Notes: a model not told the origin generated them from the sequence alone. Shown: positions 2,541-62,896, numbered from the stretch's first letter. The stretch: DNA of 64,000 bases from Pyrinomonadaceae bacterium (GCA_035646355.1 DASRPN010000155.1:10711-74710); one strand, 5' to 3'. A program made the numbers and translations.

Positions 2541-2653
2541 CGCAAAGGCGCAAAGACGCAAAGAAAGGCGTTATGCGAAATGGGGCATTGCCGCGCGTCG
2601 CTGGCAAGTAGCGGCAAAACGAACGCCTTCCTTTGCGCCTTTGCGCCTTTGCG
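2541..2653. repeat. Word-repeat hairpin element A (CGCAAAG type)
   Basis: Left arm is CGCAAAGGCGCAAAGACGCAAAGAAAGGCG (2541-2570). Right arm is CGCCTTCCTTTGCGCCTTTGCGCCTTTGCG (2624-2653). The arms are near-perfect inverted repeats. The element lies between the stop of the GxxExxY gene and the start of the peptidase. Confidence 0.85.
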
Positions 2654-2659
2654 TGACCC

Positions 2660-3042
2660 TCATTCCCGCACTCTATTAACGACCCTCTGAATTCCATCTT
2701 TCATTAGCTCCACGTTGAAGTTGATCAGCAAACCAAGCCGCTTATCCATCAATCGCAAATAAGTTAGTAACTGTTTTTTGTGAACAGGCAATATTGCTTC
2801 GACCGACTTGATCTCAACAACTACGCTATTCCCAACCAGCAAATCCACTCGGAAGCCAAGATCCAGTTTTACCCGTTCGTAATGAACCGGCAGAGTAAGT
2901 TCCCGTACCACGGTCAAATTTCGTTTTTGTAGCTCAAATTAAGAATCGCCTGGTAGACAGATTCCAGCAGGCCTGGACCAAGTGTCCTGTGTATCTTTAG
3001 TGCGGCATCGACCACAACAGTGGCAATTTCATTCTCGGTCAT
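2660..3042 (-). pseudogene. GxxExxY protein (PD-(D/E)XK-like), disrupted by a 1-nt frameshift
   Basis: ATG 3042 (AGGAG upstream) encodes MTENEIATVVVDAALKIHRTLGPGLLESVYQAILNLSYKNEI*, which contains the GxxExxY motif. The rest of the family-typical sequence (ELQKRNLTVVRELTLPVHYERVKLDLGFRVDLLV...LINFN...KDGIQRV) continues in another frame as ORF 2660..2917. The shift sits in an AATTT run near 2920-2930. Confidence 0.7.
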
Positions 3043-3083
3043 GTGAGGTCTCCTTGTGAGTAGGAAAATTGACGAACGCTAAA

Positions 3084-3668
3084 TTACGGAGAAGGTTTTA
3101 TTGAAGGAGACGCTGCTGGCGCCGGTTCCGCGATTTTTATAGTGGTTCGAAGCGTGTCCCACGCCGTCGCGAACTTCTTGATATCGCGATCTGGACCAAA
3201 GAGTGTCATCACGACGACTCGTTGGCCCACGAGAGCCCAGTAGATCTTCGCAGCGCCGGGCTCACCTCCCAGTGACGCGGTGAGTTGAACGCCATCGGCT
3301 TTAACTCCGCCGATCTCCGAAGTATCAGGCGACTTTTGCGGCGTTGCTCCCATGGCCACAAACTGCTTCTCAATCGAAGCGACATAAGGATCGATAAAAG
3401 CCTTTTTCGCCTCTGGGAGTTTCTCCGCGCCGATGCGGCCCTTATGCGCAAACACTCGCATCTGAATGTCGGCAGCGCTGTTCGCGAAACTGTACTGCTG
3501 GGCGTCGTCGTCGCTCATGTCCGTGAGCGTCCAGCCCTTTGGATAATTAAAAGAGAGATCGCCCTTCGAAAACTGTTGCGCGTCTGAGGGAGCTGGCGCG
3601 GGGGTTTGCGCGGAGGCAATGACGCCGCAAAAGACGACGATGACTAATAACTTAACCGTAAGTCTCAT
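3084..3668 (-). CDS. Secreted hypothetical protein
   Basis: ORF with N-terminal signal peptide MRLTVKLLVIVVFCGVIASAQ. No motif recognised. Confidence 0.6.
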   Translation of the reverse strand: MRLTVKLLVIVVFCGVIASAQTPAPAPSDAQQFSKGDLSFNYPKGWTLTDMSDDDAQQYSFANSAADIQMRVFAHKGRIGAEKLPEAKKAFIDPYVASIEKQFVAMGATPQKSPDTSEIGGVKADGVQLTASLGGEPGAAKIYWALVGQRVVVMTLFGPDRDIKKFATAWDTLRTTIKIAEPAPAASPSIKPSP

Positions 3669-3852
3669 GTTTCTCCTCCGCCGGATCTATTAAGTAGCGG
3701 GCGTGCAACCGGGACGCGCTGTACCCGCGGTGTCCTGATTGCCGGCCGCGATCTGTTTCACCGTACTGCCTGACACGCAATTCACCGGTTCCCTTCTTAA
3801 TCGATACAAACTTGTTGCCGCAGCTCGTCTCGACGATGTACTCGTTTCCGTT

Positions 3853-5378: not shown

Positions 5379-5468
5379 CTCTTGCCTTTGCGCCTTTGCG
5401 CCTTTGCGCCTTGGCGGGAAATAAGTTTCGGAGTATCTCCGGCAGAGGCGCAAAGGCGCAAAGAGGAG
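5379..5468. repeat. Word-repeat hairpin element B (CGCAAAG type)
   Basis: CTCTTGCCTTTGCGCCTTTGCGCCTTTGCGCCTTGGCGG ... CCGGCAGAGGCGCAAAGGCGCAAAGAGGAG. Inverted arms lie in the divergent intergenic region. Confidence 0.85.
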
Positions 5469-9014: not shown

Positions 9015-9800
9015 ATGGCGGAAACGAAGACCAACGGCAGCGATCATCCACTAACGACCAAAAAGTGCACCATTCGTTTCGGCGGATTAGTAGCCGTCAA
9101 CGAGCTCGACATGCGTGTGCGCCAGGGAGAGATTTATGGATTGATCGGTCCCAACGGCGCCGGAAAAACGACGATCTTCAATCTTCTAACCGGCGTCTAC
9201 ACGCCAACTTCCGGCGAGCTTTATTTCAACGGCGAGCGGATCGACGGACTCAAGCCGTACGAAATCTCGCGCCGCGGCGTGTCGCGCACTTTCCAGAACA
9301 TCCGGCTGTTTCCAAGTATGTCGGTGCTGGAAAATGTCATGACCGCGTGTCATCGGCACGCCAAGCAGAACCTACTCGACGCCGTCCTGCGGTTGCCGCG
9401 ATTCGAACGTGATGAACGCGAGCATCGCGAGTTTGCGCTGGAGTTACTGGAAATATTCGACCTTGCGCGTTTCAAAGATGAAGGCGGAACGAGTTTGCCG
9501 TACGGATCACAACGTCGGCTCGAGATCGTGCGCGCGCTCGCGACGAGGCCGCAGCTGCTGCTGCTCGACGAACCCGCGGCGGGTATGAACCCGTCAGAGC
9601 AGGAAGATTTGATGAACTTGATCAAGCAGATCCGCGATCGCTTCGGACTCACGATTTTGCTCGTCGAACACAACATGAAAGTGGTGATGGGTGTGTGCGA
9701 AAGAATTCAGGTTGTCGACTACGGGAAGTCGATCGCACTCGGTCTTCCTGAAGAGATCAAGAATGACCCGAAGGTGATCGAAGCGTACCTCGGAGATTAG
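9015..9800 (+). CDS. livG: Branched-chain amino-acid ABC ATP-binding protein LivG
   Basis: Walker [10 protein letters not shown], signature YGSQRRLEI, Walker B LLLLDEP, and the LivG-type C-terminus [10 protein letters not shown]. Confidence 0.9.
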
Positions 9801-9802
9801 AG

Positions 9803-9922
9803 CTTAGTGTTTAGTACTTTGTCAGTGGTCCGTAGTCAGTGGTCAGTGATTTACGAACTGACTACGGACTACTGACTACTGACTACTGACTACTGACTAC
9901 TGACAAAGTACTAAACACTAAG
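9803..9922. repeat. Composite word-repeat hairpin element C (outer GTAC/CAAAG words, inner TGACTAC words)
   Basis: The outer 24 nt CTTAGTGTTTAGTACTTTGTCAGT pair perfectly with ACTGACAAAGTACTAAACACTAAG. Inner arms are GGTCCGTAGTCAGTGGTCAGT versus five tandem copies of the 7-mer ACTGACT. The element starts 2 nt after the livG stop and ends 17 nt before the livF ATG. Confidence 0.9.
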
Positions 9923-9939
9923 TACAAAGAACAAACAGA

Positions 9940-10694: not shown

Positions 10695-10784
10695 TCTCTG
10701 CGTACCTCCGCGATCCTCTGCGACTCTGCGGTAAACGAACCGCAAAACGTATAAACCGCAGAGACGCAGAGGACCGCAGAGAGG
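10695..10784. repeat. Word-repeat hairpin element D (CTCTGCG type)
   Basis: TCTCTGCGTACCTCCGCGATCCTCTGCGACTCTGCGG ... CCGCAGAGACGCAGAGGACCGCAGAGAGG. Confidence 0.85.
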
Positions 10785-13836: not shown

Positions 13837-15016
13837 GAAGATAGTTTTGGCTTATTCGGGTGGTCTCGACACTTCGGTCATGCTCCGCTGGCTCAAAGAG
13901 CACTACGACTGCGAGGTCGTTTGCTACTGCGCCGACGTGGGCCAGGGCGCCGAGTTGTCGGGTCTTGAAGAGAAAGCCCACGCGACCGGAGCGTCGAAAC
14001 TTTACGTGGAAGATCTGCGCGAGGAGTTTGTGCGCGATTACGTTTGGACCGCGGTTAAAGCGAATGCGGTTTACGAAGGTGTTTATCTGATGGGCACTTC
14101 CCTCGCCCGTCCTGTGATCGCGAAACGGCAGATCGAGATTGCGCAAAAAGAGGGCGCGGACGCGGTGGCCCACGGGGCGACCGGCAAAGGAAACGATCAG
14201 GTCCGCTTCGAGCTGACTTACTACGCGCTGCAACCGGACATCAAGGTGATCGCGCCGTGGCGCGAGTGGGAGTACAAGGGACGGGCAGATTTAATCGCTT
14301 ACGCGAAAGAGCACGGCATCCCGGTCACGGCCACGGCCGAGAAACCATACTCGACTGATGCGAACTTGATGCACATCTCGTACGAGGGCGGCATCCTCGA
14401 GGACCCGTGGGCCGAACCGCCGGAGAACATCTTTCAGCTCACGCGCTCGCCTGAGAACGCAAGTGCCGAAGCGCAGTACGTCGAGATCTCTTTCGAGAAA
14501 GGTGAGCCGGTGGCGGTTGACGGGCGCCGGCTTGATCCGGTCACGCTGCTTGAGACCTTGAATGGATTGGGCGGCGCGCACGGGATTGGTCGTGTCGATC
14601 TCGTCGAGAATCGCTTCGTGGGGATGAAGTCGCGCGGCGTGTACGAGACGCCCGGCGTCACGATGCTGCACGCAGCGCATCGCGCGCTCGAGTCAATAAC
14701 TCTCGATCGCGAAGTCATGCACCTGCGCGATTCGCTGGGTGTGAAGTTCGCCGAGAGCGTGTATTACGGTTTCTGGTTTGCGCCGGAATTCAAGCTCATG
14801 AGCAAGCTGATTGACGAAACGCAGGTCAAGGTAACTGGCGACGTGCGTCTTAAGCTTTATCGCGGAAATACGATCGTCGTCGGACGTCGTTCACCGAATT
14901 CGTTGTACGACGAGAACATCGCCACGTTTGAAGCCGACACCGTTTACAACCAGCGCGATGCTGAAGGATTTATCAAGCTCAATGCGTTACGCCTGCGATT
15001 AGGGGGGCAAAGGTAA
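13823..15016 (+). CDS. argG: Argininosuccinate synthase
   Basis: ORF 13811..15016. Likely ATG 13823 ([18 protein letters not shown], the N-type ATP-PPase motif). Overlaps the argR 3' end by 14 nt. Confidence 0.92.
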
Positions 15017-15017
15017 T

Positions 15018-15169
15018 GAATGCGAAATTGCGGGATTGCGAAATTGCGGATTTGGCAGAGCGCAGAATTGTCCAATTGCCAGATGTCGAGAACGGCACGT
15101 CGCGGAATGAGTTCGAACTGCTGAACTCGACCAATGCCGCAATTTCGCAATCTCACGATTCCGCAATGG
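15018..15169. repeat. Word-repeat hairpin element E (ATTGCG type)
   Basis: GAATGCGAAATTGCGGGATTGCGAAATTGCGGATTTGG ... CCAATGCCGCAATTTCGCAATCTCACGATTCCGCAATGG. The loop holds a second small palindrome, GAGTTCgaactgctGAACTC. Confidence 0.8.
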
Positions 15170-16209
15170 TTTCCGTCGTTGATGTCGATAAAATCGGATC
15201 GGCCACGTCGCCGCTTGGATTGGCGAAGACCGTCGGTTTCGTAAGTTCATCGTCGTCAACGCGTGCGGGAGATGTTGTTGTCGTGCGCGCGCTGACTGAC
15301 AGTGCGACTTACAACATGCTCGAGCTGCCCACAGGACGTTTGGCGAAGATTAATCCGGGCGACATGTTGATTGGCGTGCTTGGTCGCCGGCGTGCGTTGA
15401 AGGGTTTCGTCGGCGACGTTCCTGCTAGCGTGAAAGCAGGAGACGAACTTCATTTGCTCAACATGGGCGGTGTGATTGGTTGTTGCACCGGACATCACTC
15501 GAGTCTTGGCGAGGCGATTAAGCTGGAAGTGATTGGACTCGTGTGTGATGAAGACGGCCAGGTGCTGAACATCGCAAACGCCGCGTTACCATTGCGCGCA
15601 CGACTGGGTAAAACCGCGCCGATCGTAATGATCGCCGGCACTAGTATGAACAGCGGCAAGACGTACGCCGCTACTGAGTTAATTAAACAAGCGACGCGAG
15701 CGGGGTTGAAAGTTGCCGCCGCTAAACTATCCGGTGTGGCCTGTCTGCGTGACACGCTGAACATGGCAGACCACGGAGCTGTTGCCACTGCGAGTTTTCT
15801 CGATTGCGGTTTGCCTTCGACTGTTGACGTCGAAGACCTTGCGCCGATGGCGAAAGCCATCATCGCGAAACTAAATGAGATCGCGCCTGATCTGATCGTC
15901 ATCGAGTTAGGCGACGGCATTCTCGGCGGCTATTCAGTCGATACAGTATTCAGCGATGTGGAGTTGCTGGATGCGACCGCGGCGCTGGTGTTCTGTGCGT
16001 CTGACTACGTTGGGGCGTGGGGAGGGATCGAGTTGTTGCGACGGCGCGGTGTCGAGGTCGATGTGGTTTCCGGTTCGGTTACTGACTCGCGCATGGGCGG
16101 CGACTACATCAAGTCGCAGTTCAATGTGCCGGCAGCTAATGCGCGGCGTGAAGGTGAAACGTTGTTTGAGTTGGTGATGGCTAAAGTTGGAGCAACAGTA
16201 GCAGTCTGA
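15166..16209 (+). CDS. Uncharacterised two-domain protein with a dethiobiotin-synthetase/CobQ/DUF1611-type P-loop, embedded in the arg operon
   Basis: ORF 15016..16209, whose first 50 codons are encoded by repeat element E. In-frame ATG 15166 gives 347 aa. GTSMNSGKT (G-x5-GKT) lies at 15637-15663, then IVIELGDG. Stop is 2 nt before the argC ATG. Confidence 0.6.
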   Translation: MVSVVDVDKIGSATSPLGLAKTVGFVSSSSSTRAGDVVVVRALTDSATYNMLELPTGRLAKINPGDMLIGVLGRRRALKGFVGDVPASVKAGDELHLLNMGGVIGCCTGHHSSLGEAIKLEVIGLVCDEDGQVLNIANAALPLRARLGKTAPIVMIAGTSMNSGKTYAATELIKQATRAGLKVAAAKLSGVACLRDTLNMADHGAVATASFLDCGLPSTVDVEDLAPMAKAIIAKLNEIAPDLIVIELGDGILGGYSVDTVFSDVELLDATAALVFCASDYVGAWGGIELLRRRGVEVDVVSGSVTDSRMGGDYIKSQFNVPAANARREGETLFELVMAKVGATVAV

Positions 16210-16211
16210 CG

Positions 16212-17234
16212 ATGAATAAAATCCGTGTGGCAATCCTTGGTGGTTCTGGTTACGGCGGCTCCGAGCTGCTGCGTATTCTGCTGTCTCATCCGAACGTCGA
16301 ACTGGCGCTCGTAACGGCGAACGAACACGCGGGCAAGGCCGTCGGCGAAGTGCACCGCAATCTCAATGGGCTGACTGATCTTAATTTTGTTGCAGCGCCG
16401 GAAAGCATCGATACCGTCGATTGCGTTTTCCTCGCGCTCCCGCACGGGCGGGCAATGGACATCGTTCCGCGACTGCCCGGTGAAACCAAGGCGATCGATC
16501 TGTCGGGCGATTTTCGACTGCGCGATCAAGCTGTTTTCGAGAAGCACTACAAACAACCGCACACCGCGATGGGAGTTCAGGCGGAGTTTGTTTATGGTCT
16601 GACTGAGACAAATCGCGAAGCAATTAAGAACGCGCGACTGATCGCTAACCCCGGCTGTTTTGCTACTGCAACGCTACTCGGACTAGCGCCTCTCGTTGCG
16701 AACGGCGTGCTCACCGGTCGCGTGATCGTTGACGCGAAGACGGGATCATCGGGTTCGGGCGCTAAAGCGGCGGCTAACACGCATCACCCGCAACGCATGA
16801 ACTCGTTCTACGCGTACAAGCCATTCACGCATCAGCACGTGCCCGAGATCGAACAAGAACTCGAACACGTCGGCGATTGGACCAACGAACTCGTCTTCAT
16901 GACACACTCGCTGCCGCTGTCGCGCGGGATCTTTGCGTCAATTTATGCTGAGACAAAAACAGATCACACCGAAGATCAATTGCGAACAATGTTCGCAGAT
17001 TATTATCGCGACTCCTTCTTCGTCCGGCTGGTAAACGGTTCGCCTGACATCAACTGGGTGAAGACGACTAACTTCTGCGACATCGGATTTGCGGTGCGCG
17101 CAAACTCCATCGTGGTCTTCTCTGCGATCGACAATCTCGTGAAAGGCGCCGCCGGTCAAGCAGTGCAGAACATGAATCTTATGTTTGGTCTGGATGAAAA
17201 GACCGGTTTGATGCTGGTCGGTACAAATCCGTGA
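16212..17234 (+). CDS. argC: N-acyl-gamma-glutamyl-phosphate reductase
   Basis: 340 aa. GGSGYGG NAD(P) loop and active-site NPGCFAT motif. Confidence 0.92.
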   Translation: MNKIRVAILGGSGYGGSELLRILLSHPNVELALVTANEHAGKAVGEVHRNLNGLTDLNFVAAPESIDTVDCVFLALPHGRAMDIVPRLPGETKAIDLSGDFRLRDQAVFEKHYKQPHTAMGVQAEFVYGLTETNREAIKNARLIANPGCFATATLLGLAPLVANGVLTGRVIVDAKTGSSGSGAKAAANTHHPQRMNSFYAYKPFTHQHVPEIEQELEHVGDWTNELVFMTHSLPLSRGIFASIYAETKTDHTEDQLRTMFADYYRDSFFVRLVNGSPDINWVKTTNFCDIGFAVRANSIVVFSAIDNLVKGAAGQAVQNMNLMFGLDEKTGLMLVGTNP

Positions 17235-18409
17235 AATCCGTAAAATCCGTGGTTCAGATCGAGGACGAGTTTCAGCTCGGCACTTATAAAAAAATGCCTA
17301 TCGCCGCTGAACGTGGCGATGGTGTGTGGATCTACACGACTGACGGCGACAAGTATCTCGATCTTTACGGCGGGCACGCTGTCGCCGGCACCGGGCATTG
17401 TCATCCACACGTGGTGCAGGCCATCGGCAAGCAGTCGGAGAAATTGTTGTTTTATTCGAACCTCGTCTACTCCGCCGCACGCGCGCGCGCAGCGGAACGG
17501 CTGATTTCGATCGCGCCCGCAGCATTGACCAAAGCTTTCTTCTGCAATTCCGGTACGGAAGCAAACGAGAACGCTATGCGTATGGCGCGCATGGCAACGG
17601 ACCGCGAAAACATCATCACCTTCAGCGGCGGATTTCACGGGCGTACAGCCGATTCGATTAGCGCGACGTTCCTGGGCAAGTATCGCGAACTCGGTCGACC
17701 AAACGTTCCCGGGCACTTGGAAGCAACGTTTGGCGATGTCGAATCGGTACGCGCGCTGGTTGACGAAAACGTCGCCGCGATCATGCTCGAACCGATCCAG
17801 TCGATGGCCGGCGTGCTCATGGCCCAACCCAAGTTTTATCGTGAACTGCGCGAGTTATGCGACGAATTTGGCGTGGTGCTGATCTACGACGAGGTGCAGA
17901 CCGGAGTAGGTCGCACCGGTGAATGGTTCTTCGCCGGAAACACAGCAGGTGACGGCGTCGTGCCCGACATCGTAACGCTGGCGAAGGCGCTCGGCAGCGG
18001 CGTGCCTGTCGGCGCGTGCCTGGTCACCGAAGCCATCAGTTCGCACATCAAAGAAAACGATCTCGGAACCACGTTTGGCGGCGGCATGTTGGCAATGGCG
18101 GCTGTGACCGCTACTCTTGAAGCGATCCAAAACGATGGAATGCTGGGGAACGTCAAAGCCGTCGAAGCACGCCTGCGAGAGCGATTGCGCGAGATCGAAC
18201 AGGTGGTTGCTGTCCGCGGTCTCGGCTTCTTGTTGGGAATTGAGTTCAAGGATAAAGCCGCACCCATTCACAAAGCGTTGCTCGACCGTAAAATCATTAC
18301 CGGAACGTCAAGCGACGCAAACGTTTTGCGGTTGCTGCCACCACTATGCTTAGGGATGGACCATGTGGATTTGTTTGTTGAGCAGCTAGGGGCGATATGC
18401 ACTTCCTAA
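17231..18409 (+). CDS. argD: Acetyl/succinyl-ornithine aminotransferase (class III PLP aminotransferase)
   Basis: 392 aa. GTEANE and DEVQTG...TLAKALG (PLP lysine) motifs. GTG start overlaps the argC stop (GTGA). Confidence 0.9.
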   Translation: MKSVKSVVQIEDEFQLGTYKKMPIAAERGDGVWIYTTDGDKYLDLYGGHAVAGTGHCHPHVVQAIGKQSEKLLFYSNLVYSAARARAAERLISIAPAALTKAFFCNSGTEANENAMRMARMATDRENIITFSGGFHGRTADSISATFLGKYRELGRPNVPGHLEATFGDVESVRALVDENVAAIMLEPIQSMAGVLMAQPKFYRELRELCDEFGVVLIYDEVQTGVGRTGEWFFAGNTAGDGVVPDIVTLAKALGSGVPVGACLVTEAISSHIKENDLGTTFGGGMLAMAAVTATLEAIQNDGMLGNVKAVEARLRERLREIEQVVAVRGLGFLLGIEFKDKAAPIHKALLDRKIITGTSSDANVLRLLPPLCLGMDHVDLFVEQLGAICTS

Positions 18410-19383
18410 CCACGAAAGATTCCGATCTGAATGCACTGATCGAGTCCGCGTTGCGCTTCAAGCGCGGCGACGATCGCTCGCGGCCGCTCGAGGGCAAGTC
18501 AGTGGCCCTGGTGTTCTTCAATCCGAGTTTGCGCACGCGTGCGTCGATGCAAGTGGGCGTCTACGAGCTAGGCGGCAACGCGGTCGTACTCGAACCCGGC
18601 GGGACGAGTTGGACGCTCGAGCATCGCGCAGGCGCGGTGATGGACGGTGATAAGACTGAACACGTATCCGAGTTTGTGCGCGTGCTCGAACGATACTGTG
18701 TCGCGATCGGTGTGCGTACCTTTGCGGCGCTGAAAGACTGGGCGGAGGAACGGACCGATCCGATTCTAAATTCGTTTGCACGGTACGCATCGGTGCCGAT
18801 CATCAATCTTGAATCCGCGATGCATCATCCCTGCCAATCACTCGCTGACATGATGACGATACGCGAGAAACTCGGCGCGGGACGCAAACGCGTCCTGTTG
18901 ACCTGGGCGTGGCATCCGAAATTGCTTCCGATGGCCGTGCCAAACAGTTTCGCACTCGCGGCGGCGCAAATGGGGCACGACCTCGTCATCGCACATCCGC
19001 CCGGATACGATCTCGACGAAGAGTTGATCGAAGATTCGCGAAAAGTTGCGGCCGATGCAGGCGGCAGCCTGACGATCAGTAACGACATGGACACGGCTTT
19101 CGCCGGCGCTGAAGTGATCTACGCGAAGAGTTGGGGCGCCAAACAGTTTTACGGGCGCGACGAACAAGACACGATCACGCGGGCGCAGTATCGCAACAAG
19201 TGGATCGTTAACGAGCGCCGCATGGCCCAAACGGACGACGCGATCTTCATGCATTGTCTGCCCGTGCGTCGTAACGTGATCGTAACCGACGGTGTGATCG
19301 ACTCAGCTTCATCCGTGGTGATTGATGAAGCCGAAAACCGGTTGCACGTCCAAAAAGCCGTAATTGCTGAGCTTTGTGCTTAG
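18397..19383 (+). CDS. argF': N-acyl-L-ornithine carbamoyltransferase (AOTCase/SOTCase family, argF')
   Basis: SLRTR replaces the STRTR of classical OTCase. HPCQ and HCLP motifs. Along its length it resembles the Xanthomonas N-acetylornithine transcarbamylase as I remember it (FFNPS.RTR, W..E, VMDGD..EH, IDEAENRLHVQKA). Confidence 0.85.
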   Translation: MHFLTTKDSDLNALIESALRFKRGDDRSRPLEGKSVALVFFNPSLRTRASMQVGVYELGGNAVVLEPGGTSWTLEHRAGAVMDGDKTEHVSEFVRVLERYCVAIGVRTFAALKDWAEERTDPILNSFARYASVPIINLESAMHHPCQSLADMMTIREKLGAGRKRVLLTWAWHPKLLPMAVPNSFALAAAQMGHDLVIAHPPGYDLDEELIEDSRKVAADAGGSLTISNDMDTAFAGAEVIYAKSWGAKQFYGRDEQDTITRAQYRNKWIVNERRMAQTDDAIFMHCLPVRRNVIVTDGVIDSASSVVIDEAENRLHVQKAVIAELCA

Positions 19384-19459
19384 TGCTTGGTACTTAATAC
19401 TTTGTTGTTTGGTCTGCGATCAAAGCACAAAGTACTAAGTACTAAGTACAAAGAACAAG
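19381..19459. repeat. Word-repeat hairpin element G (GTAC/CAAAG type)
   Basis: TAGTGCTTGGTACTTAATACTTTGTTGTTTG ... CAAAGCACAAAGTACTAAGTACTAAGTACAAAGAACAAG. Begins with the argF' stop codon and ends 4 nt before the argB ATG. Confidence 0.85.
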
Positions 19460-19463
19460 AAAC

Positions 19464-20375
19464 ATGACCGAACCGAGAACAAGTATCGACGATCAGCTAC
19501 GTCTCGATCTCCTGCGTGAAGCGCTGCCGTACATCCAGCGCTTCCAGGGACACACGTTTGTGGTCAAGCTCTCCGGAAAAGTTACCGAAGTTCAGGAGAA
19601 CCTCATTTCGCTGGCTGAGGAGTTGGCGTTACTGCACCAGGTCGGCATACGCATCTGCGTCGTGCACGGTGGGGGCAAACAACTCAGCGAACTCGCCACG
19701 AGGCTCGGGATCGAACAGACGATCATCGAGGGCCGTCGTGTCACGGACGACGCGACGCTCGAAATGGCCAAGATGATCTTTGCCGGCAAGATTAATACCG
19801 ACATCCTGGCAGCGCTCCGCCATCGCAGCATCGAAGCTGTCGGTTTGTCGGGCGTCGACGGCAACATCGTCCACGCCGAACGACGTCCGCCGAAAGAGAT
19901 CGTCAACCGCGAGACTGGTGTGCGCGACAAGGTCGATTTCGGACATGTCGGCGACGTCGTGCAGATCAACGCACGACTGCTGACCGTCCTGCTGGACCAC
20001 GGCTATCTGCCCGTGATCTCATCGCTTGGCGCGGATGACGAAGGCATGGTCTTCAACATCAACGCCGACACGATAGCCGCTGAAATCGCAGTCCAACTTC
20101 AGGCCGAGAAGCTAATCCTGCTCAGCGACGTCGACGGTATCTACTTGAAGTCCGGCGATCCACAGACAAAACTGTCGCGTCTCACGGCCGCCGAGACTGA
20201 TGAGTTGATCAGCAGCGGCGCCGCAACCGGCGGCATGATTCCGAAACTACAGAACATCGCCACGCTGTTGCGACGCGGCGTGCATAGTGCTCACATCATC
20301 AGCGGCTCCAAACGCAACGCGCTCCTGTCCGAAGTTTTCACCGACAAAGGCACCGGAACAATGATCGTCGCCTAA
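19464..20375 (+). CDS. argB: N-acylglutamate kinase
   Basis: 303 aa. Amino-acid kinase fold motifs VVKLSG, VVHGGG, NINAD. Confidence 0.9.
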   Translation: MTEPRTSIDDQLRLDLLREALPYIQRFQGHTFVVKLSGKVTEVQENLISLAEELALLHQVGIRICVVHGGGKQLSELATRLGIEQTIIEGRRVTDDATLEMAKMIFAGKINTDILAALRHRSIEAVGLSGVDGNIVHAERRPPKEIVNRETGVRDKVDFGHVGDVVQINARLLTVLLDHGYLPVISSLGADDEGMVFNINADTIAAEIAVQLQAEKLILLSDVDGIYLKSGDPQTKLSRLTAAETDELISSGAATGGMIPKLQNIATLLRRGVHSAHIISGSKRNALLSEVFTDKGTGTMIVA

Positions 20376-20384
20376 CAGCAGCCT

Positions 20385-20486
20385 CCCGCAAAGACGCAAA
20401 GCCGCAAAGAAAGACCTCAGAAATTGTCTCTAACCCTCCGGCGGCTTTTCTTGGTTCCTGTCTTTGCAACTTTGCGCCTTTGCGGG
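20385..20486. repeat. Word-repeat hairpin element H (CGCAAAG type)
   Basis: CCCGCAAAGACGCAAAGCCGCAAAGAAAGAC ... GTCTTTGCAACTTTGCGCCTTTGCGGG, between convergent genes. Confidence 0.85.
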
Positions 20487-20499
20487 AACTCTCCTCGTT

Positions 20500-21078
20500 T
20501 CACCCTATGGGTGATTGCGGCAAGTACCGATCGCGATCGAACGGCGGCTCTTCGTGCTCCGGTATCGGATCGTCGGGCCAGTCCTGCGCCCAGCGTTTGC
20601 GGTGTTCACCGTCGGCGTAATACCTGAGGTAAATTTGATTATCAGTTTCACTACCACTCCCGGTGAGGTCGATCATGTACGCATAGCTCGGGTTCTCCGG
20701 AAACAACACCGCTTCCTCACGCAAACCGTCAACATAAAGATAATTGTAGAGTTCGCGATCGGTGAGGTGATTAGTGTGCAACAGGTACGCTCCAAGCGAC
20801 GCCATGCGCTCCACGATCTCCTTTAGCTTCGAGCTGAGCGATGGTTCATCGAGTTGGTCCGGCGGCGGAATCTCGAGACCACTGTTTTCGATGAGACGAA
20901 ACAAGCTGATCGGTTCAGAGGTTTCGTACTCCAACACTTGCCGCAGAAACTCTTCCTCCATGTCAGCCGGCATCGACTCGAGCGACATAGCGCTGCCGCC
21001 AAGCTTCTCCAGTTCCTGACGCAGTCTGGCGATACGTTCTTCCTGATCCGGTTCGTCGGCGAATTGAATAGTCGTCAT
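20500..21078 (-). CDS. Acidic hypothetical protein
   Basis: 192-aa ORF with coding-like composition. No motif recognised. Confidence 0.5.
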   Translation of the reverse strand: MTTIQFADEPDQEERIARLRQELEKLGGSAMSLESMPADMEEEFLRQVLEYETSEPISLFRLIENSGLEIPPPDQLDEPSLSSKLKEIVERMASLGAYLLHTNHLTDRELYNYLYVDGLREEAVLFPENPSYAYMIDLTGSGSETDNQIYLRYYADGEHRKRWAQDWPDDPIPEHEEPPFDRDRYLPQSPIG

Positions 21079-22514: not shown

Positions 22515-22556
22515 CATTGATCTGTAGTTCCACTTCTGATTGAATGGGCCACCACC

Positions 22557-23678: not shown

Positions 23679-23751
23679 TTGGTCAGTTGTCCGTTTGTTC
23701 GCAGGTGCTACGAAGCACTGAGTACTGACAACTGACCACTGACCACTGACA
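23679..23751. repeat. Word-repeat hairpin element I (TGACCAC type)
   Basis: TTGGTCAGTTGTC ... GACAACTGACCACTGACCACTGACAA with an inner GTGCTacgaAGCAC hairpin, between convergent genes. Confidence 0.7.
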
Positions 23752-23753
23752 AT

Positions 23754-30741: not shown

Positions 30742-30904
30742 TTGTGCTTTGTACTTGGAGCTTTGTACTTTGACGTTGTCCGTGGTCAGTAGTCCGTGGG
30801 CAGCGGTGGCTTATCGATCCGTCGATCACCTGAGACTCACAACTGACCACTGACTACGACCTCTGACTACTGACAAAAACTAAGTACAAAAATCGAAGCA
30901 CAAA
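30742..30904. repeat. Composite word-repeat hairpin element J (outer GTAC/CAAAG words, inner TGACTAC/TGACCAC words)
   Basis: TTGTGCTTTGTACTTGGAGCTTTGTACTTTG-...GTCCGTGGTCAGTAGTCCGTGG ... CAACTGACCACTGACTACGACCTCTGACTACTGAC-AAAAACTAAGTACAAAAATCGAAGCACAAA. Fills the gap between the kinase stop (30905) and the RDD start (30732). Confidence 0.85.
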
Positions 30905-32800
30905 TCAGCCTACTAAAAAGTGCAACGTCGTCTCGCCGACGCGCAATTTGTCTCCGCTATCTAATACGCGTGGTTGGCGCGGCGCAAGTTTCACCGAATC
31001 GTTAATCACCGTGCCGTTCACCGATCCCAAATCCTCGACGAGAAACGTTTCACCTTCGAGCCAGATACGTGCATGACGCCGAGAGACCTTCGTTTCGGGA
31101 TCGAATCGCGAGAGATCGATCTCGGGGAAGATGTTTGAATGGGGGTCAGTGCGTCCAAGCAAGTTGCTGTCTTTCTGGAGGATGAACGACGCGTCGAGCT
31201 CCGTGGTTCCCGTGACGACGAGTTTCGCCGTCGGTCGCGCAGCGTGCAAAGTGGCGCTGGCGCCGACTGCGGCTAGCGGTTGTCGAGCACCGCAGTGCGC
31301 ACAGAACACGTCGTCCGCGGCGATGCGGCCACCACAAAAACCGCAATAGACCGTCGCGACCTGAACAGTTTCGCCGCCGAGGAGTGGCGCCGGCATGCCG
31401 AAACTGACCTGCCCCTTCATTAACCGGTCGAGATGATTTACGAGCTCGTTCCGCAACTCACCTGCCGAGCGATAGCGATCCTCCAGCCGGTACTCGACGC
31501 AGCGCATCAGAATCTGCTCCATCTCAGTCGAGATTGAAGGCGCGATCTGGCGCGGACGCGGGTTCTTCGAAAAGTCGAAAATCAGGAGCGGGTTGTCCTG
31601 CGGATCCGACCCGGTCAACAGGTGGAACATCGTTGCCCCGAGACTGTAGACGTCCGAAGCGGGCTGCACGCGTCCGCTAAACAACTCGGGCGGAGCATAA
31701 CCCATCGTGCCAACAGCCGTGACGCCTTTCTCCTGTTGTTGCGTGACCCAGCGCGCGATTCCGAAGTCGATCAGCATTATGCGTCCGGTGTTGCCGTCAA
31801 TCATCAAATTCGCGGGTTTCAGGTCGCGGTAGATGATTGGTTTGGGACGCGAATGGAGATAGTCGAGCACGTCGGCGACCTGCATGCCCCAGTCGGTGAC
31901 GGTCTTCTCATCGAGTCGTCCGCCAATCGCCGCGCGCATCCGCGACGCCAGATCGCCGCCCGAGATGTACTTCATGACGAGGTAGAAACGGCTGCGATCA
32001 GCGTCGTAGAAATAGTCGTAGATGGTCGGGATGCACGGATGCTCGAGTGACGTAAGCAGTAGTGACTCGCGTTTGAAGTCGCCGATCGCTTTCTCGTGCT
32101 GCGCCGGATCGAGATGCGATTCCATCATCTCTTTTACAGCGCGCGGCGCGTCGCCAAGATTACGATCCTTCGCGAGGTAGACCGCGCCCATACCACCGCC
32201 GCCGATCCGGCGTACGATCTCATAGCGGCCATTCAATACTGTATTCGCCGGGAGTTGCTTGACAGTCGGCTGGTGTCCGCCAGTCGTTCCACGGTGTTTC
32301 GACGTGTGACTCGCGGCTGGCTCCGCGGGAATATTGTCAGTGTACGAACCACCGAGCGAGTCTGAAGAGATGGGCTTCGGTTCTTCGACGGCTTTCGCAA
32401 CAGGCGCCGGAGCTTCCGCAACAGCAGTGGCGGATTCGTGAAAAAAGTCAGACTTCGCTCCGGCCGGATCGTCAACTCCTGGCTCTTCTTCTTGGCCAAC
32501 AGGTGTCTCGCGCGTTTCGGCGTCTTCGAATGTAGTGGCCAACTGGGCAGACGTCATTGGTGGCGCGTCTGTATCAGCCAGTTGGGCAGACGTCATCGGT
32601 GGCGCGTCTGTATCAGCCAACTGAGCAGAGGTCATCCGTGGCGCGTCGTCCTCGTCACCGAGAGTCGCCGCCATGGTCTTCAATTCCGGGTCGTTAGGAA
32701 TCAGTTGGGCGCCGCAATTGCCGCAGAAGTGTTCACCCGGGGAGTAGCGGGCACCGCATGCACTACACTCAGCCATCTCGATCCGTATTACGTCTTTCAT
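30905..32800 (-). CDS. Zinc-ribbon - Ser/Thr kinase - zinc-ribbon - FHA multidomain protein
   Basis: CSACGARYSPGEHFCGNCG. Hanks kinase core (GGGGMGAVY, VKE, YRDLKPAN, DFG, APE). CGFCGGRIAADDVFCAHCG. C-terminal FHA (LLGRTDP...SRRHARI...VEDLGSVNGT). Confidence 0.9.
   Translation of the reverse strand: MKDVIRIEMAECSACGARYSPGEHFCGNCGAQLIPNDPELKTMAATLGDEDDAPRMTSAQLADTDAPPMTSAQLADTDAPPMTSAQLATTFEDAETRETPVGQEEEPGVDDPAGAKSDFFHESATAVAEAPAPVAKAVEEPKPISSDSLGGSYTDNIPAEPAASHTSKHRGTTGGHQPTVKQLPANTVLNGRYEIVRRIGGGGMGAVYLAKDRNLGDAPRAVKEMMESHLDPAQHEKAIGDFKRESLLLTSLEHPCIPTIYDYFYDADRSRFYLVMKYISGGDLASRMRAAIGGRLDEKTVTDWGMQVADVLDYLHSRPKPIIYRDLKPANLMIDGNTGRIMLIDFGIARWVTQQQEKGVTAVGTMGYAPPELFSGRVQPASDVYSLGATMFHLLTGSDPQDNPLLIFDFSKNPRPRQIAPSISTEMEQILMRCVEYRLEDRYRSAGELRNELVNHLDRLMKGQVSFGMPAPLLGGETVQVATVYCGFCGGRIAADDVFCAHCGARQPLAAVGASATLHAARPTAKLVVTGTTELDASFILQKDSNLLGRTDPHSNIFPEIDLSRFDPETKVSRRHARIWLEGETFLVEDLGSVNGTVINDSVKLAPRQPRVLDSGDKLRVGETTLHFLVG
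32538..32647. repeat. In-frame 39-nt tandem repeat (about 2.8 copies) inside the kinase gene
   Basis: GCCAACTGGGCAGACGTCATTGGTGGCGCGTCTGTATCA repeated with a few substitutions. Encodes (DAPPMTSAQLADT)n in the linker between the zinc ribbon and the kinase domain. Confidence 0.85.
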
Positions 32801-33415: not shown

Positions 33416-33504
33416 CTGAATCCCAAAAAGCAAGACATTCTATCGCGAAAGCCACTCCACACGCCATCAGACAGGATCCGAGTAGTGCCCTACTTTGGAA
33501 ATCT

Positions 33505-33542
33505 TCTCTGCGTATCGCTGCGTGCCTCTGCGACTCTGCGGT
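33505..33542. repeat. Half element K (CTCTGCG words, direct copies only)
   Basis: TCTCTGCGTATCGCTGCGTGCCTCTGCGACTCTGCGG uses the same words as element D. I saw no complementary arm nearby. Confidence 0.6.
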
Positions 33543-33854
33543 TAATGCTTCTTACTCCATATTTACCGTTGCCAACACAGTTAATAGAGCACTACCAAGA
33601 TCCGGCCCATCGTTGGCAACTGAGATTTAACGACGTGCACCTGTTAAGAAAGAGGCCCGCGAAAACGTCCTATAAAGTGCGAACCTTTTTGCAGGAATTG
33701 GTGTCTAATGCGGTTGCCTCCGTTTGCTCTAAAATGAAACAGTTTGATAACTTTTCACGTAGAAGCTACCGGTTTGGCACGAGCGGTTCCGATTAGAGCC
33801 ACTACCTCGTTTTCATTTCACTAGTTTTTACCCCCGAGTCTAAGGAATTTAAAG

Positions 33855-36134: not shown

Positions 36135-36142
36135 AAGGTTAG

Positions 36143-36243
36143 CCACAAAAGGCACAAGAAGCACAAAAGGCACAAGGGACAAAGGCATGTTCAGTGCCTT
36201 TTTTGACTTTTGTGCCTCTTGTGTTTCTTGTGCCTTTTTGCGG
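36143..36243. repeat. Word-repeat hairpin element L (GGCACAA type) with a terminator-like core
   Basis: CCACAAAAGGCACAAGAAGCACAAAAGGCACAAGGGACAAAGGCA-tgttcag-TGCCTTTTTTGACTTTTGTGCCTCTTGTGTTTCTTGTGCCTTTTTGCGG. The apical stem AAAGGCA/TGCCTTT is followed by a T-run. Confidence 0.85.
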
Positions 36244-43799: not shown

Positions 43800-43818
43800 T
43801 TGCTTCTCAAGAATGGTT

Positions 43819-43902
43819 CCCGCAAAGGCGCAAAGCCGCAAAGCCGCAAAGGACAACCTGAATTCTTATCTTGGCGCCTTTGCGCCTTTGCGCCCTTGCG
43901 GG
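43819..43902. repeat. Word-repeat hairpin element M (CGCAAAG type)
   Basis: CCCGCAAAGGCGCAAAGCCGCAAAGCCGCAAAGG ... GGCGCCTTTGCGCCTTTGCGCCCTTGCGGG. Lies between the mutase stop (43906) and the deacetylase start. Confidence 0.85.
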
Positions 43903-43905
43903 AAA

Positions 43906-45474: not shown

Positions 45475-45500
45475 TGCTGGAGCGTAGCATAACGCAATTT

Positions 45501-45525
45501 GACACGATTACACGATTGACACGAG
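45501..45525. repeat. Short direct word repeat N (ACACGATT x3)
   Basis: GACACGATTACACGATTGACACGAG in the divergent region upstream of rlmI. No inverted partner seen. Confidence 0.5.
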
Positions 45526-55123: not shown

Positions 55124-55894
55124 ATGTCCCAGTTTCTCTCGATCATCATTCCTGCATATAACGAAGCGGCCCGGCTGGGGAAAACCCTCGAGACCGTCGC
55201 GGACTACATGCGCCAGAGTTACCCCGAGGGCGAGATAATCATTGTTGACGACGGTTCCGCCGATGAGACGGCGACCCTCGCGCGACAGTTGCTGGCCGGC
55301 AGGGGTACGCTCCGCACTTCCGTCATCAGTTACAAATCAAACCTGGGAAAAGGACGGGCCGTGCGCCTCGGACTACTCGCGGCGCGGGGCGAGGTCGCAC
55401 TTTTCTCAGATGCCGATCTCTCGACGCCAATCACAGAGACGCCGAAACTGTGCGATCCCATTCTGAAGAACGAATGTGATGTGGCGTTTGGGTCGCGCGC
55501 GTTGGACCGCAAACTGATCGGCGTGCACCAATCCTGGCGCCGTGAGCAGGGTGGCCGGGTTTTCAATCTGGCCGTTCGTGTGGCGACGGGCATGCCATTC
55601 TGGGACACTCAGTGCGGCTTCAAAGCATTCAAGATGTCTGTCTGCCGTCCGCTGGTTGAAGCGGCGACTATCGATCGGTTTGGCTTCGACGTCGAGCTTC
55701 TCTATCTCGCCTATCGCGCGGGACTACGGCTGCGCGAAATACCCGTTCGATGGGACCATAACGAGGGAAGCAAGATCAGTCTGTTCAGCGACAGTTTCAA
55801 GATGCTGGGCGAGGTTGGACTCATTCGGCAGCAGGCCCGTCGCGGCGTCTACGATGCTGCCATTCGCGCCGTGCACGACAGGACTACGCCGTGA
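55124..55894 (+). CDS. Family 2 glycosyltransferase (dolichyl/polyprenyl-phosphate hexosyltransferase-like)
   Basis: LSIIIPAYNEA, IIVDDGSADET, DADLSTP (DxD-type) motifs. Confidence 0.8.
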   Translation: MSQFLSIIIPAYNEAARLGKTLETVADYMRQSYPEGEIIIVDDGSADETATLARQLLAGRGTLRTSVISYKSNLGKGRAVRLGLLAARGEVALFSDADLSTPITETPKLCDPILKNECDVAFGSRALDRKLIGVHQSWRREQGGRVFNLAVRVATGMPFWDTQCGFKAFKMSVCRPLVEAATIDRFGFDVELLYLAYRAGLRLREIPVRWDHNEGSKISLFSDSFKMLGEVGLIRQQARRGVYDAAIRAVHDRTTP

Positions 55895-55989
55895 GCTTTG
55901 TACTTTGAGCTTTGTACTTGGTATTTTTTCCTTGCTGAGTAGACCGTTGTCAGCGGGCGGGAACCAAGCACCAAGAACAAGCACAAAAC
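55895..55989. repeat. Word-repeat hairpin element O (GTAC/CAAAG type)
   Basis: GCTTTGTACTTTGAGCTTTGTACTTGGT ... ACCAAGCACCAAGAACAAGCACAAAAC. Starts right after the GT2 stop and ends 2 nt before the pdxJ ATG. Confidence 0.85.
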
Positions 55990-57176: not shown

Positions 57177-58826
<1,650 letters not shown>

Positions 58827-60284: not shown

Positions 60285-60319
60285 TGGAACGCGGATTGAA
60301 TGGTCCGGATTGAATTTAG

Positions 60320-60817: not shown

Positions 60818-60863
60818 GCGAGTAAAAAATACGGGATTAACCGAGGAGAAACTAAGCTAGCAG

Positions 60864-61577
60864 ATGTTTGGTGCAAGTATCGGACGAGCCGCCCAGCGGA
60901 TCATCGATGCCATTGTGCGGTGGCTGGCCAGTGGGCACATCAATCCCAATCTCCTGACCGTGATCGGCGTTGGCATAAATGTCGGCTGCGGTCTTCTTTT
61001 TGGGTTTGGGCGTTTTTTCTCAGCGGGCATTCTGCTCCTGGTCGCAAACCTCTTCGACATGCTTGACGGCCAGGTGGCCCGGCTCTCGGGCCGAGTAACG
61101 AGATTTGGCGGCTTTCTCGATTCTTCGTTGGACCGCCTGTCGGATATGGTTGTATTTGTGGGCCTTATGGTCTTTTACGCCCGCGACATCCCGGACCACT
61201 CAACTCTTAACGTTTTTCTCGCGGGCGCCGGACTAATGGGCTCGGTTATGGTAAGCTACGCCAGCGCGCGGGCAGAGAGCCTGATTCCCAAATGCGATGT
61301 CGGCTTCCTGCGACGCCCAGAACGCGTGATACTCTTTATTATCGGCGCGCTTAGTACTCATCCAGGTTCTGATAATTTCTTTGCCAATCGGATGCCGGCT
61401 GTGTTGTGGGTACTTGCAGTTGGCTCCTATTGGACCTTCGCGCATCGCATGTACCACACGTGGCGCGAACTGGCGAAGGTAGAGGCAACAAAAACAGAGA
61501 ACGTGCCGGCTCAGGAAATACGTATACAGAATCCGATATCGTTCGTTAAGTCCGCGTTTCCGGAAAAACAGGGATAA
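60864..61577 (+). CDS. CDP-alcohol phosphatidyltransferase family protein
   Basis: DMLDGQVARLSGRVTRFGGFLDSSLDRLSD matches D-G-x2-A-R-x8-G-x3-D-x3-D. Multiple TM segments. Confidence 0.8.
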   Translation: MFGASIGRAAQRIIDAIVRWLASGHINPNLLTVIGVGINVGCGLLFGFGRFFSAGILLLVANLFDMLDGQVARLSGRVTRFGGFLDSSLDRLSDMVVFVGLMVFYARDIPDHSTLNVFLAGAGLMGSVMVSYASARAESLIPKCDVGFLRRPERVILFIIGALSTHPGSDNFFANRMPAVLWVLAVGSYWTFAHRMYHTWRELAKVEATKTENVPAQEIRIQNPISFVKSAFPEKQG

Positions 61578-61603
61578 CGCGAGCGCTCTTTTGAGGTAGA
61601 AAC

Positions 61604-62512
61604 GTGACTATCTGTCCGTGCTGTGGCTTCAAGTTTGTTGGAGCCTTGAGCAATGGTTGTAGACAATGTGGGGCCCGCTCGGTAGGTGAGCCCCTTCCGA
61701 GACCGGCCCACGAACTTCCGTCCTACGGACGCGCGCTCGTGTTGGCAGTTGCCGGCTCCCTCACCGTCCTTCTTTTCCTCACGCAAACAGTCATCGCGGT
61801 GTTTTCCAAATCGCTGGATCCATTGGGTGGATGGTCCTGGATCACGGCGGGCCAGATCGCTGCGTGGCGGTTGAAGTGGGTCTCGATTCCGCTGCTGATC
61901 GTAACCGTCTGGTTAGGCCGAAAGCTTTACCGCTCGATCAAACAGAACCCGGAAAAGTTTTGCGGTCTGAAACATGCGCGACGCGGTTTGTTCGCGACAT
62001 CCTTCGTAGTGTTTCTGATTGCGTTGTTGATCGGAGTCACTGTGCCGGAGCGACTGCGACAACGACAAATGGCGAAGGATGCCACTTTCAAGGCTCACTA
62101 CTACAAGTTTGAAACCGCCACCCTCGAATATCAGTTGCGCTACCAAACCTACCCGGCCGACATCGCCGATCTCAGAAAACGGATTCCGGATCCTGATGGC
62201 ACCCTGGCCGAAGCCTTAAGATTCATAGACCCAAATGGTTACCGGCCCAGTGCCGACTTCGCTGCAAATGCCGCGGAGAAAACGCCGTCTCTGCGCGGCG
62301 CGGCTATCCGCCGAGTTTCATTATCCGCCACCGACGATACCCCGAGTGGAAGTTTGGCATTCACCACCTACGAACTACAGCTCCCGGGTGAAGACAAGAT
62401 CCTTGGCACCGAAGACGACTGGATCGGGTCGAACGGCATCCTGAAGCGAGTAACCGAGGTTTCCAAAGGTGGTGTGGGCCGTTCCGTTTCAGCCGGTATC
62501 CTGCAACCATAG
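61604..62512 (+). CDS. Zinc-ribbon membrane protein of unknown function
   Basis: GTG start. CPCCGFKFVGALSNGCRQCG, then 3 TM segments and a ~170-aa extracytoplasmic domain that is faintly pseudopilin-like. Confidence 0.55.
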   Translation: MTICPCCGFKFVGALSNGCRQCGARSVGEPLPRPAHELPSYGRALVLAVAGSLTVLLFLTQTVIAVFSKSLDPLGGWSWITAGQIAAWRLKWVSIPLLIVTVWLGRKLYRSIKQNPEKFCGLKHARRGLFATSFVVFLIALLIGVTVPERLRQRQMAKDATFKAHYYKFETATLEYQLRYQTYPADIADLRKRIPDPDGTLAEALRFIDPNGYRPSADFAANAAEKTPSLRGAAIRRVSLSATDDTPSGSLAFTTYELQLPGEDKILGTEDDWIGSNGILKRVTEVSKGGVGRSVSAGILQP

Positions 62513-62518
62513 CGACGC

Positions 62519-62806
62519 ATGTCGTTTCTGGATCGTTTCCGTAAAAAAGTCGAAGACGAAGCCTCACGAATCGCACGTCTTTCCAAGACGGGACGCATGA
62601 CTGACGGAAACATCATCGACGCCGTCTCCGACAACAACGGTCGCATCACGCAAGTCACTTACACATACACGCTGGCGGGAGTGCTTTACGAATCTTCACA
62701 GGCACTCACCGACCAGCAACAGCAGCATTCATTCGACTACGCGCCCGGTAAACAAATCGTCGTCAGATACGATCCACGTCAACCTGCGAACTCGATTGTC
62801 GTATAG
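62519..62806 (+). CDS. Small hypothetical protein (DUF3592-like beta-rich pattern)
   Basis: 95 aa. ...PGKQIVVRYDPRQPANSIVV resembles the DUF3592 C-terminal pattern. No TM segment. Confidence 0.45.
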   Translation: MSFLDRFRKKVEDEASRIARLSKTGRMTDGNIIDAVSDNNGRITQVTYTYTLAGVLYESSQALTDQQQQHSFDYAPGKQIVVRYDPRQPANSIVV

Positions 62807-62896
62807 AGCTTTGTTCTTTGTGCTTTGTACTTTGACTCCGTAGACTGGCACTCTTGTAATGATCGAACAAAGAACAAAGTTCTAAGCACAAAGCTC
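62807..62896. repeat. Word-repeat hairpin element P (GTAC/CAAAG type)
   Basis: GAGCTTTGTTCTTTGTGCTTTGTACTTTG ... CAAAGAACAAAGTTCTAAGCACAAAGCTC. Starts right after the stop at 62806 and ends 7 nt before ATG 62904. Confidence 0.85.

Follow-up and report, generated by a model that had tools for sequence, protein, structure and literature searches.

The stretch of DNA analysed here (GCA_035646355.1 DASRPN010000155.1:10711-74710; 64,000 nucleotides, referred to below as the window) carries, mostly between its genes, a series of hairpins, labelled A to P together with two one-armed arrays, whose arms consist of tandem copies of short words. The host is an uncultured Pyrinomonadaceae bacterium (Acidobacteriota, Blastocatellia), ArgG and the 20 kb around it matching metagenome-assembled genomes of Pyrinomonadaceae. 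The closest relative, L006, is collinear with the window and shares 98% identity in ArgG and 92.8% nucleotide identity over 20 kb, and LivF proteins identical to that of the window are found on soil metagenome contigs. Matches to Pfam place in the window a liv ABC operon, the gene order argR-argG-X-argC-argD-argF'-argB, a MacB-type exporter, a kinase gene with an RDD gene, and a GT2 gene adjoining pdxJ; the window holds no tRNA or tmRNA gene. A cyanobacterial origin involving short tandemly repeated repetitive (STRR) sequences, guessed from the heptamers, is ruled out, since ArgG and its flanks are those of Pyrinomonadaceae and the locus has ArgR.

The tandem-word hairpins are real and statistically solid. 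Tandem Repeats Finder (TRF) detects paired arrays of 7-10-nt units where a first-pass annotation of the window had placed them, and an inverted-repeat finder pairs arms of 27-54 nt that are 73-95% complementary and separated by 3-63 nt, at A, B, C, D, E, G, H, J, L, M and P. With an independent stem finder (at least 16 matched base pairs, loop of up to 120 nt) we obtained 11 stem clusters in the window, every one of them a listed element, whereas 20 dinucleotide shuffles averaged 0.15 and never gave more than 1. Folding as single-stranded DNA gives z scores of -3.0 to -10.7 for 12 of the 13 hairpins, the remaining one, O, being weak. TRF arrays of period 6-10 number 38 in the window, 27 of them inside listed elements, and 3-10 in shuffles; periodicity reaches at least 0.65 in 47% of the 522 arms taken from the window and from 80 related loci but in only 1.3% of shuffled arms. 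The word period is characteristic of the family, 7 being commonest, followed by 8, 9 and 10 in falling frequency. Counting the decayed element K and the weak element O, 14 hairpins lie in the 64 kb of the window and 279 in 1.2 Mb of relatives, and 216 of 263 hairpins are intergenic, typically starting within 10 nt of a stop codon and ending a few nucleotides ahead of the next start codon. An assembly artefact is ruled out: the L006 assembly does contain a 126-nt hairpin at site I, and element C recurs in independent metagenomes.

Much of the first-pass annotation thus holds. The hairpins with tandem-word arms are borne out by TRF, the inverted-repeat finder, the shuffles and folding, the raw sequences agree with the word sets as listed, and the gene context it had inferred (liv, arg, MacB-type, kinase/RDD) is that found with Pfam. 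Its element list stands for 12 strong hairpins, with K decayed, O weak, and F and N one-armed (Table 1). Its statement that all copies are intergenic is mostly correct, but G holds the argF' stop, E supplies a probable ATG and F lies in the argC/argD overlap. Most elements were said to lack a U-tract, and this is true of all stems: no T-tract follows any stem on either strand, and the next 10 nt never hold more than 5 T. These are therefore not intrinsic terminators, as they lack U-tracts and most lie inside operons, nor are they arrays of clustered regularly interspaced short palindromic repeats (CRISPR), which have 24-48-nt repeats and unique spacers, since the units here are 7-10 nt long and contiguous and the arrays are inverted. 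The comparison of filled and empty sites, Pfam and the structure of the arrays likewise agree with the reported lack of target duplications, transposase and CRISPR-like spacers. Finally, no described family had been recognised, and we found none in Rfam, whose covariance models gave 0 matches at the gathering score on both strands of the 64 kb, or in the searchable literature.

Table 1. Tandem-word elements of the window, with their settings and their counterparts in related loci (L numbers)
Element	Position	Words and architecture	Location	Folding or detection	Relatives and paralogues
A	2533..2661	CGCAAAG family, 3 words per arm	upstream of S9 peptidase gene	z -6.6	aligned with 21 other family copies
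B	5384..5463	CGCAAAG family reversed (CTTTGCG arm first)	divergent intergenic region	z -7.1	no element in L006, L008, L013; 7-nt spacer
C	9797..9929	composite: outer CTTWGTA, nested inner GTCAGTG/ACTGACT; 45-bp stem	fills livG/livF junction	z -10.7	absent in L006; 5, 6 or 7 right-arm copies in strains 99.6-100% identical
D	10696..10782	CTCTGCG family	between livF and second binding-protein gene	z -7.5	an insertion when compared with L006 and about 25 further genomes; inner end and flanks common to L042 and L038 copies
E	15012..15174	ATTGCG(R)A-word hairpin	argG/gene X junction; last word is probable ATG (15166) of X	z -4.6	site empty in 53 of 77 relatives
F	17225..17251	one-armed array, AAATCCGTG x3	argC/argD overlap	TRF	
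G	19374..19458	CTTWGTA family	argF'/argB junction; argF' stop 19381-19383 inside	z -6.3	L006: ATGA stop/start overlap of argF' and argB
H	20384..20487	CGCAAAG family, termini TCCCGCAAAG...CTTTGCGGGA	between convergent genes	z -6.3	
I	23680..23752	GGTCAGT/ACTGACN-word hairpin	between convergent genes	z -3.1	L006: hairpin of different family (GGCACAAGA)
J	30745..30907	composite, outer CTTTGTA and inner GTCAGT	kinase/RDD junction	z -5.4	paralogue of C
K	33482..33595	decayed CTCTGCG family; outer termini GTAGTGCCCTAC...TAGAGCACTAC and left-arm words kept, right-arm words lost			termini recur in L065 and L038 copies
L	36141..36238	GGCACAA(A)AG-word hairpin	MacB-type ATPase/permease junction	z -8.3	family at other loci: L006, L024, L030, L055, L059
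M	43817..43904	CGCAAAG family, 4 words per arm	1 nt past methylmalonyl-CoA mutase stop	z -6.9	
N	45499..45524	one-armed array, TTGACACGA x3; no hairpin; membership uncertain	divergent intergenic region		
O	55892..55984	weak, decayed CTTTGTA family, remnant inner GTCAG words	GT2 gene stop 55892-55894; pdxJ ATG 55993	z -2.0	
P	62799..62903	CTTTGTN family	from DUF3592 gene stop (62804-62806) to biotin carboxylase ATG (62904)	z -3.6	

The elements are dispersed DNA repeats with fast turnover. In the collinear alignment with L006 the spacers at the sites of B, C, D, E, G and H measure only 0-14 nt in the relative (at the livG/livF junction, the livG stop, 7 nt and the livF ATG), and the extra segments of the window at these sites are clean indels of 75-155 nt, so that the same region holds seven or eight elements in the window and one in L006. 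No target-site duplication flanks any of these six when filled and empty sites are compared, and none was seen between L042 and L059, which are 90% identical and in which each break of collinearity is the gain, loss or replacement of such an element. Across 80 related loci the spacers at the argG/X and argF'/argB junctions are bimodal in length, mostly empty and some of 100-290 nt, and hairpins of at least ten different words occupy the livG/livF junction in about 30 of 36 genomes. We note that at site G (window 19374-19489) the element supplies a new argF' stop, giving the C-terminus ...AELCA in place of the ...SELCGS of L006, and that gene X probably takes its start codon from the last word of E, giving MVSVVDVD in place of MTKEIAVVDVD. 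The genes that follow CTTTGTA-family elements begin 5-17 nt past the A-rich arm, with no Shine-Dalgarno motif.

Clustering of the 279 hairpins from 1.2 Mb resolves families, each with its own word, period and termini, whose members are scattered over unrelated loci of the same genome and of different genomes. The family ATCCACAGATTACRCAGAT-loop-ATCTGYGTAATCTGTGGAT has at least 25 copies in 13 genomes, some of them identical at 39 of 39 positions and 3.2 kb apart; the CGCAAAG family, with termini TTTCnCGCAAAG..CTTTGCGn'GAAA, has 22 copies in 11 genomes, A, H and M of the window among them; and a third dispersed family is TAGCCACAAAAAGGCAC... Elements with the word CTCTGYG share non-word outer stems between D and K of the window and copies in L038, L042 and L065. 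Both orientations are present, marked by a fixed G:T or A:C mismatch. Elements C and J share one composite design, in which a CTTTGTA hairpin encloses a GTCAGT hairpin with the identical inner/outer junction TGACAAA.ACTAA, and nesting is also found in relatives, where a CTCTGYG element lies inside a CACRGATTA element at site I in L065 and L038. These comparisons show that insertion leaves no target duplication, goes either way round, and often falls within an older element or replaces it. As a separate observation, many unlike words fit the loose core CRCRRAK (CACAAAG, CGCAAAG, CACAGAG, CGCAGAG, CACAGAT, CGCGGAT), which could reflect common descent or a shared recognition motif.

Once in place, the arrays change in word number. 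The right arm of element C holds seven ACTGACT copies in the window and five or six on soil contigs that are 99.6-99.9% identical, and a difference among 99.6%-identical strains points to slippage. Contigs also begin or end inside this ACTGACT array (the contig starts of L002, L004 and L005, and L001 and L003, compared with window 9857-9904); together with the differing copy number, this indicates that such repeats fragment assemblies of the lineage. Array F amounts to one extra in-frame 9-mer relative to L006, a slippage of native sequence. The native region of the argC stop and argD start (window 17216-17261), a junction compared in about 45 loci, is a tandem AAATCCGTG pair; directly after it about 11 genomes have half an element of the CACGGATT family, namely the right arm, which ends in CCGTGGCTA, and 4 genomes have a full hairpin of that family at the junction. 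The half-elements could have arisen by deletion between direct word copies or by seeding by the native sequence.

While words change, the pairing of the arms is kept. In the CGCAAAG family the terminal variable pair is A-T in 9 copies, C-G in 7, G-C in 3 and T-A in 1, and the covariation score of 0.153 (0.089 +/- 0.012 in shuffles) was equalled in 0 of 500 shuffles and exceeds every slid control. In L021 and L031 every word of both arms has changed from CAAAG to CAACG, and CRCRGAT words form Watson-Crick pairs at two variable positions in 47 of 53 and 43 of 53 copies. The arms thus co-vary within families, which argues that the hairpin itself is maintained.

We think that these hairpins are small non-autonomous foldback repeats of the kind represented by repetitive extragenic palindromes (REPs), paired REPs forming a hairpin (REPINs) and miniature inverted-repeat transposable elements (MITEs), multiplied in this Pyrinomonadaceae bacterium and its relatives, and we give this reading a probability of roughly 65%. 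Polymorphism, nesting and conserved termini support the proposal, already made in the first-pass annotation, of a system like that of REPs and bacterial interspersed mosaic elements, in which one architecture carries several word sets. The unit that moves would be a single-stranded DNA hairpin, probably mobilised in trans by an HUH/Y1 transposase resembling the REP-associated tyrosine transposases (RAYTs). After insertion, replication slippage alters the number of words, and word changes spread through both arms with the hairpin preserved. Long stems may persist as slippage lengthens the arms and as longer or multi-site hairpins make better substrates. Any effects on mRNA (decoupling within operons, protection of 3' ends, new stop and start codons) would then be consequences of insertion and not its cause, and might in places have been co-opted.

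The lineage does have an enzyme of this kind, in a genuine RAYT/REPIN system that serves a second, canonical REP family. A motif scan of all open reading frames (ORFs) of the related loci identified two Y1 transposases, in L028 (18402-19125) and L079 (8770-9560), which match Pfam Y1_Tnp and carry NHYH...YVHHNP; the L079 copy has an in-frame stop. Both lie between the genes for an HhH protein and an asparaginase, a site that is empty in the window (22514-22557, a 42-nt spacer), and inverted copies of GTTCAGAGTTCAAGC-TTTA-GCTTG border the L028 gene. Homologues number 2145, several labelled 'REP-associated tyrosine transposase' by the Joint Genome Institute (JGI), and in the 66 metagenome loci with enough flanking sequence this REP type lies to either side of the gene, its small hairpin having undergone compensatory changes. 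REPINs linked to this RAYT fill the livG/livF junction in L033, L055 and L023, one sits in the centre of a tandem-word hairpin in L078, and some duplicate a heptamer tail (GTTCAGA GTTCAGA). The lineage thus has both the machinery for, and the habit of, moving single-stranded hairpins to such junctions. Among acidobacteria, Solibacter usitatus has about 600 REP-like structures associated with class 3 Y1 transposases (PMC6006769). We also note that CAGAG is common to CRCRRAK-type words and to the tail GTTCAGAG of the RAYT-linked REP. Relatives carry further dispersed palindromes without tandem words (L033:12269-12342, L069:12278-12403, and upstream of gene X in L076 and L084), of the types AACAAGTCAGGAAGGGTGGCTTGCCCCCGC...GCGGGGGCAAGCC..CTTCCTGACTTGTT, ACCGCCTGCGGTAGCGGGCGGTT... 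and GTTTAGAGGCGGGC-nnnn-GCCCGCC, the last of which has the GTTTAGAG tail of the RAYT-linked REP.

Several observations weigh against the reading of the hairpins as REP- or MITE-like mobile repeats. Pfam detects no transposase among the about 58 ORFs of the window, neither the window nor 1.5 Mb of related loci yielded a transposase flanked by tandem-word hairpins, and the sole RAYT clade found is tied to a different REP (GTTYAGAGTTCAAGC-TTTA-GCTTG) that is absent from the window; the mobiliser is accordingly inferred. A REP unit consists of a small stem-loop (5-13 bp) and an unpaired, conserved GTAG or CGTC tag (PMC3733652), and the CACAGATTA and CGCAAAG families have neither a subterminal hairpin nor a conserved unpaired GTAG/CGTC tag. 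Copies with near-identical arms have wholly unlike loops, which is unusual for simple copy-and-paste, and some insertions, such as E, resemble small replacements rather than clean insertions. Element G, moreover, is shared with the more distant L007 and L009 and absent from the much closer L006, which implies parallel insertion or precise loss; import by recombination from L007- or L009-like relatives was rejected, as the flanks of site G are most identical to L006 right up to the element, with no recombination tract. No autonomous insertion sequence with family arms was found in the window or the related loci, where ORFs bracketed by arms are ordinary conserved genes only. The 192-aa gene at 20500-21078, which the dominant family brackets in four genomes, was rejected as a candidate: its acidic product lacks an HUH motif and matches nothing in Pfam, and the gene is just a conserved one that lies between two occupied junctions.

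Among the alternatives, the most probable, although we consider it unlikely, is that the hairpins are cis elements selected by the host as hairpin-only terminators or attenuators, 3'-end stabilisers that make expression unequal within operons, devices for translational coupling or decoupling, or arrays bound by an RNA- or DNA-binding protein. Such selection could account for the occupation of the livG/livF junction by some hairpin in most of the genomes compared, for arms that at orthologous sites are far better conserved than the flanking spacer, for the covariation that keeps the stems, and for the position at stop codons. The REPs of E. coli are similarly placed, and they have been reported to affect translation and mRNA decay. 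However, these junctions stand empty in close relatives whose operons are intact, and the occupants of one site come from unrelated families. A perfect palindrome is identical on both strands, so only wobble pairs can reveal selection at the RNA level, and among 136 co-directional elements folding favours the sense strand in 74 and the antisense strand in 61. On average, sense minus antisense comes to -1.25 kcal/mol, a slight excess in the direction expected of host selection, but one that is marginal (p=0.046) on non-independent data that include orthologues. Oriented CACAGATTA copies lie both ways relative to transcription, and together with the marginal folding bias this leaves strand-specific RNA selection unconvincing. 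By crude gene calls, occupancy is 17-21% at co-directional, convergent and divergent junctions alike, so the depletion from divergent (promoter) regions reported for REPs is not seen. The weak strand bias, the two orientations and the equal occupancy suggest that structure is kept at the DNA level, or at least not by a strand-specific RNA function. With U-tracts lacking as well, the RNA-level roles first proposed for the hairpins are not supported by these tests, and a word period that varies from 7 to 10 nt by family makes a single periodic binding protein unlikely.

Less probable still, in our view, is a local origin independent of any transposase, in which native sequence grows in place by slippage (tandem word duplication) combined with fold-back or template-switch synthesis of the inverted arm, and like words elsewhere are due to similar seeds (stop-codon contexts) or to ectopic template switching through word microhomology. 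Slippage is directly observed at C and F, array F being an expansion of a native tandem AAATCCGTG pair, and native sequence at empty sites can resemble the occupying word (GAGCTCTGTG and GAGCTTTGTG at G; GCAATGA and CGCAAT at E); at site F, AATCCGTGA adjoins half-elements of the CACGGATT family. The unrelated loops, the lack of target duplications and the very large diversity of words would also be expected. Nevertheless, in a site-by-site matrix the empty junctions are no more similar to the elements that fill the same site than to those that fill a different one; unrelated loci share family-specific termini and non-word outer stems, which is impossible from local seeds; near-identical copies lie a few kb apart; and the composites C and J have the same internal junction. 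Targeting of insertions by microhomology to native sequence, a separate candidate, is suggestive at G, E and F and was rejected, the matrix having no diagonal excess.

The least probable alternative, in our estimate, is a distinct class of self-propagating foldback repeats with no dedicated transposase, spreading and displacing each other by replication template switching or annealing seeded by their own words, which would explain the half-elements, the unrelated loops, the nesting, the lack of target duplications and the occasional word-like native sequence where insertions lie, and which, if true, would be a bacterial route for the de novo birth of REP-like repeats. A variant is that each word family could be an array of recognition or cleavage sites for a yet unrecognised enzyme acting on single-stranded DNA.

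Other features of the window lie apart from the hairpins. Gene X (15166-16209), whose position between argG and argC is conserved across Pyrinomonadaceae, has only a sub-threshold match to a DUF1611 P-loop. Tandem repeats unrelated to the hairpins occur in coding sequence (window 51496-52460, 46828-46862, 48042-48097 and 32538-32647): hexamer and 18-mer arrays (ACTCCT, ACGCCG) inside the gene of a 1016-aa PLD-domain protein, 18-nt repeats inside the gene of a 1035-aa BNR/sortilin-like protein, and a 39-nt unit present 2.8 times in an FHA/kinase gene.

If the hairpins are indeed mobile foldback repeats, then a dominant uncultured soil lineage harbours REP-like mobile hairpins in great number and diversity, and these insert into 0-14-nt junctions of core operons (liv, arg) and rewrite stop and start codons. 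As the elements differ between genomes that are 90-93% identical, they would be a major source of micro-diversity and could serve as a strain marker, and they would be a likely cause of fragmented metagenome assemblies in Pyrinomonadaceae. They would also offer a tractable system in which to follow how REP types originate and diversify and why heptamer-type repeats build up in the intergenic DNA of some phyla.

Lastly, how do these hairpins compare with known systems? We found no description of repeats in Pyrinomonadaceae in the searchable literature, and the architecture with tandem-word arms is undescribed for bacterial repeats, although mobility of the REP or MITE type is already known. The likeness to REPs and REPINs is extensive: short extragenic palindromes in many copies and family-specific populations, found within operons and directly after coding regions; copies present in some genomes and absent from others, with no target duplication; nesting and clustering; stems that co-vary between families; and a genuine RAYT and REPIN family in Pyrinomonadaceae that uses the same junction sites. 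The arms here, in contrast, are tandem 7-10-nt words without a small hairpin, being purine- or pyrimidine-rich arrays with no self-complementarity; the stems are 25-50 bp long as against 5-13 bp, the loops are highly variable, and no cognate RAYT was found in the window and 1.5 Mb of related loci.

The TAACTGA repeats of Beggiatoaceae, Cyanobacteria and Bacteroidetes are direct arrays, with one inverted set among 170 in a Beggiatoa genome (PMC4679880). Like these and STRR sequences, our elements have tandem 7-nt units with similar words (CAACTGA/CCACTGA compared with TAACTGA), are intergenic, often abut a start codon, are absent in close relatives and break assemblies. They differ in forming inverted paired arrays, 3-63 nt apart, in having periods of 8, 9 and 10 as well and conserved termini, and in occurring in Acidobacteriota. 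BOX elements contain repeated boxB modules. A MITE with an internal minisatellite is reported from Porphyromonas gingivalis (PMC4596501). Both resemble the tandem-word hairpins as non-autonomous dispersed elements with slippage-prone internal repeats; their repeats, though, are internal, between unique terminal inverted repeats, with target duplications usual, whereas here the repeats are the arms themselves. Foldback elements of Drosophila and other eukaryotes have inverted arms of tandem short repeats that form a long hairpin and vary in copy number; they are kilobase-sized and are associated with P-like or Mutator-like transposases. These eukaryotic elements are the nearest architectural analogue of the hairpins described here, the analogy being one of architecture only.

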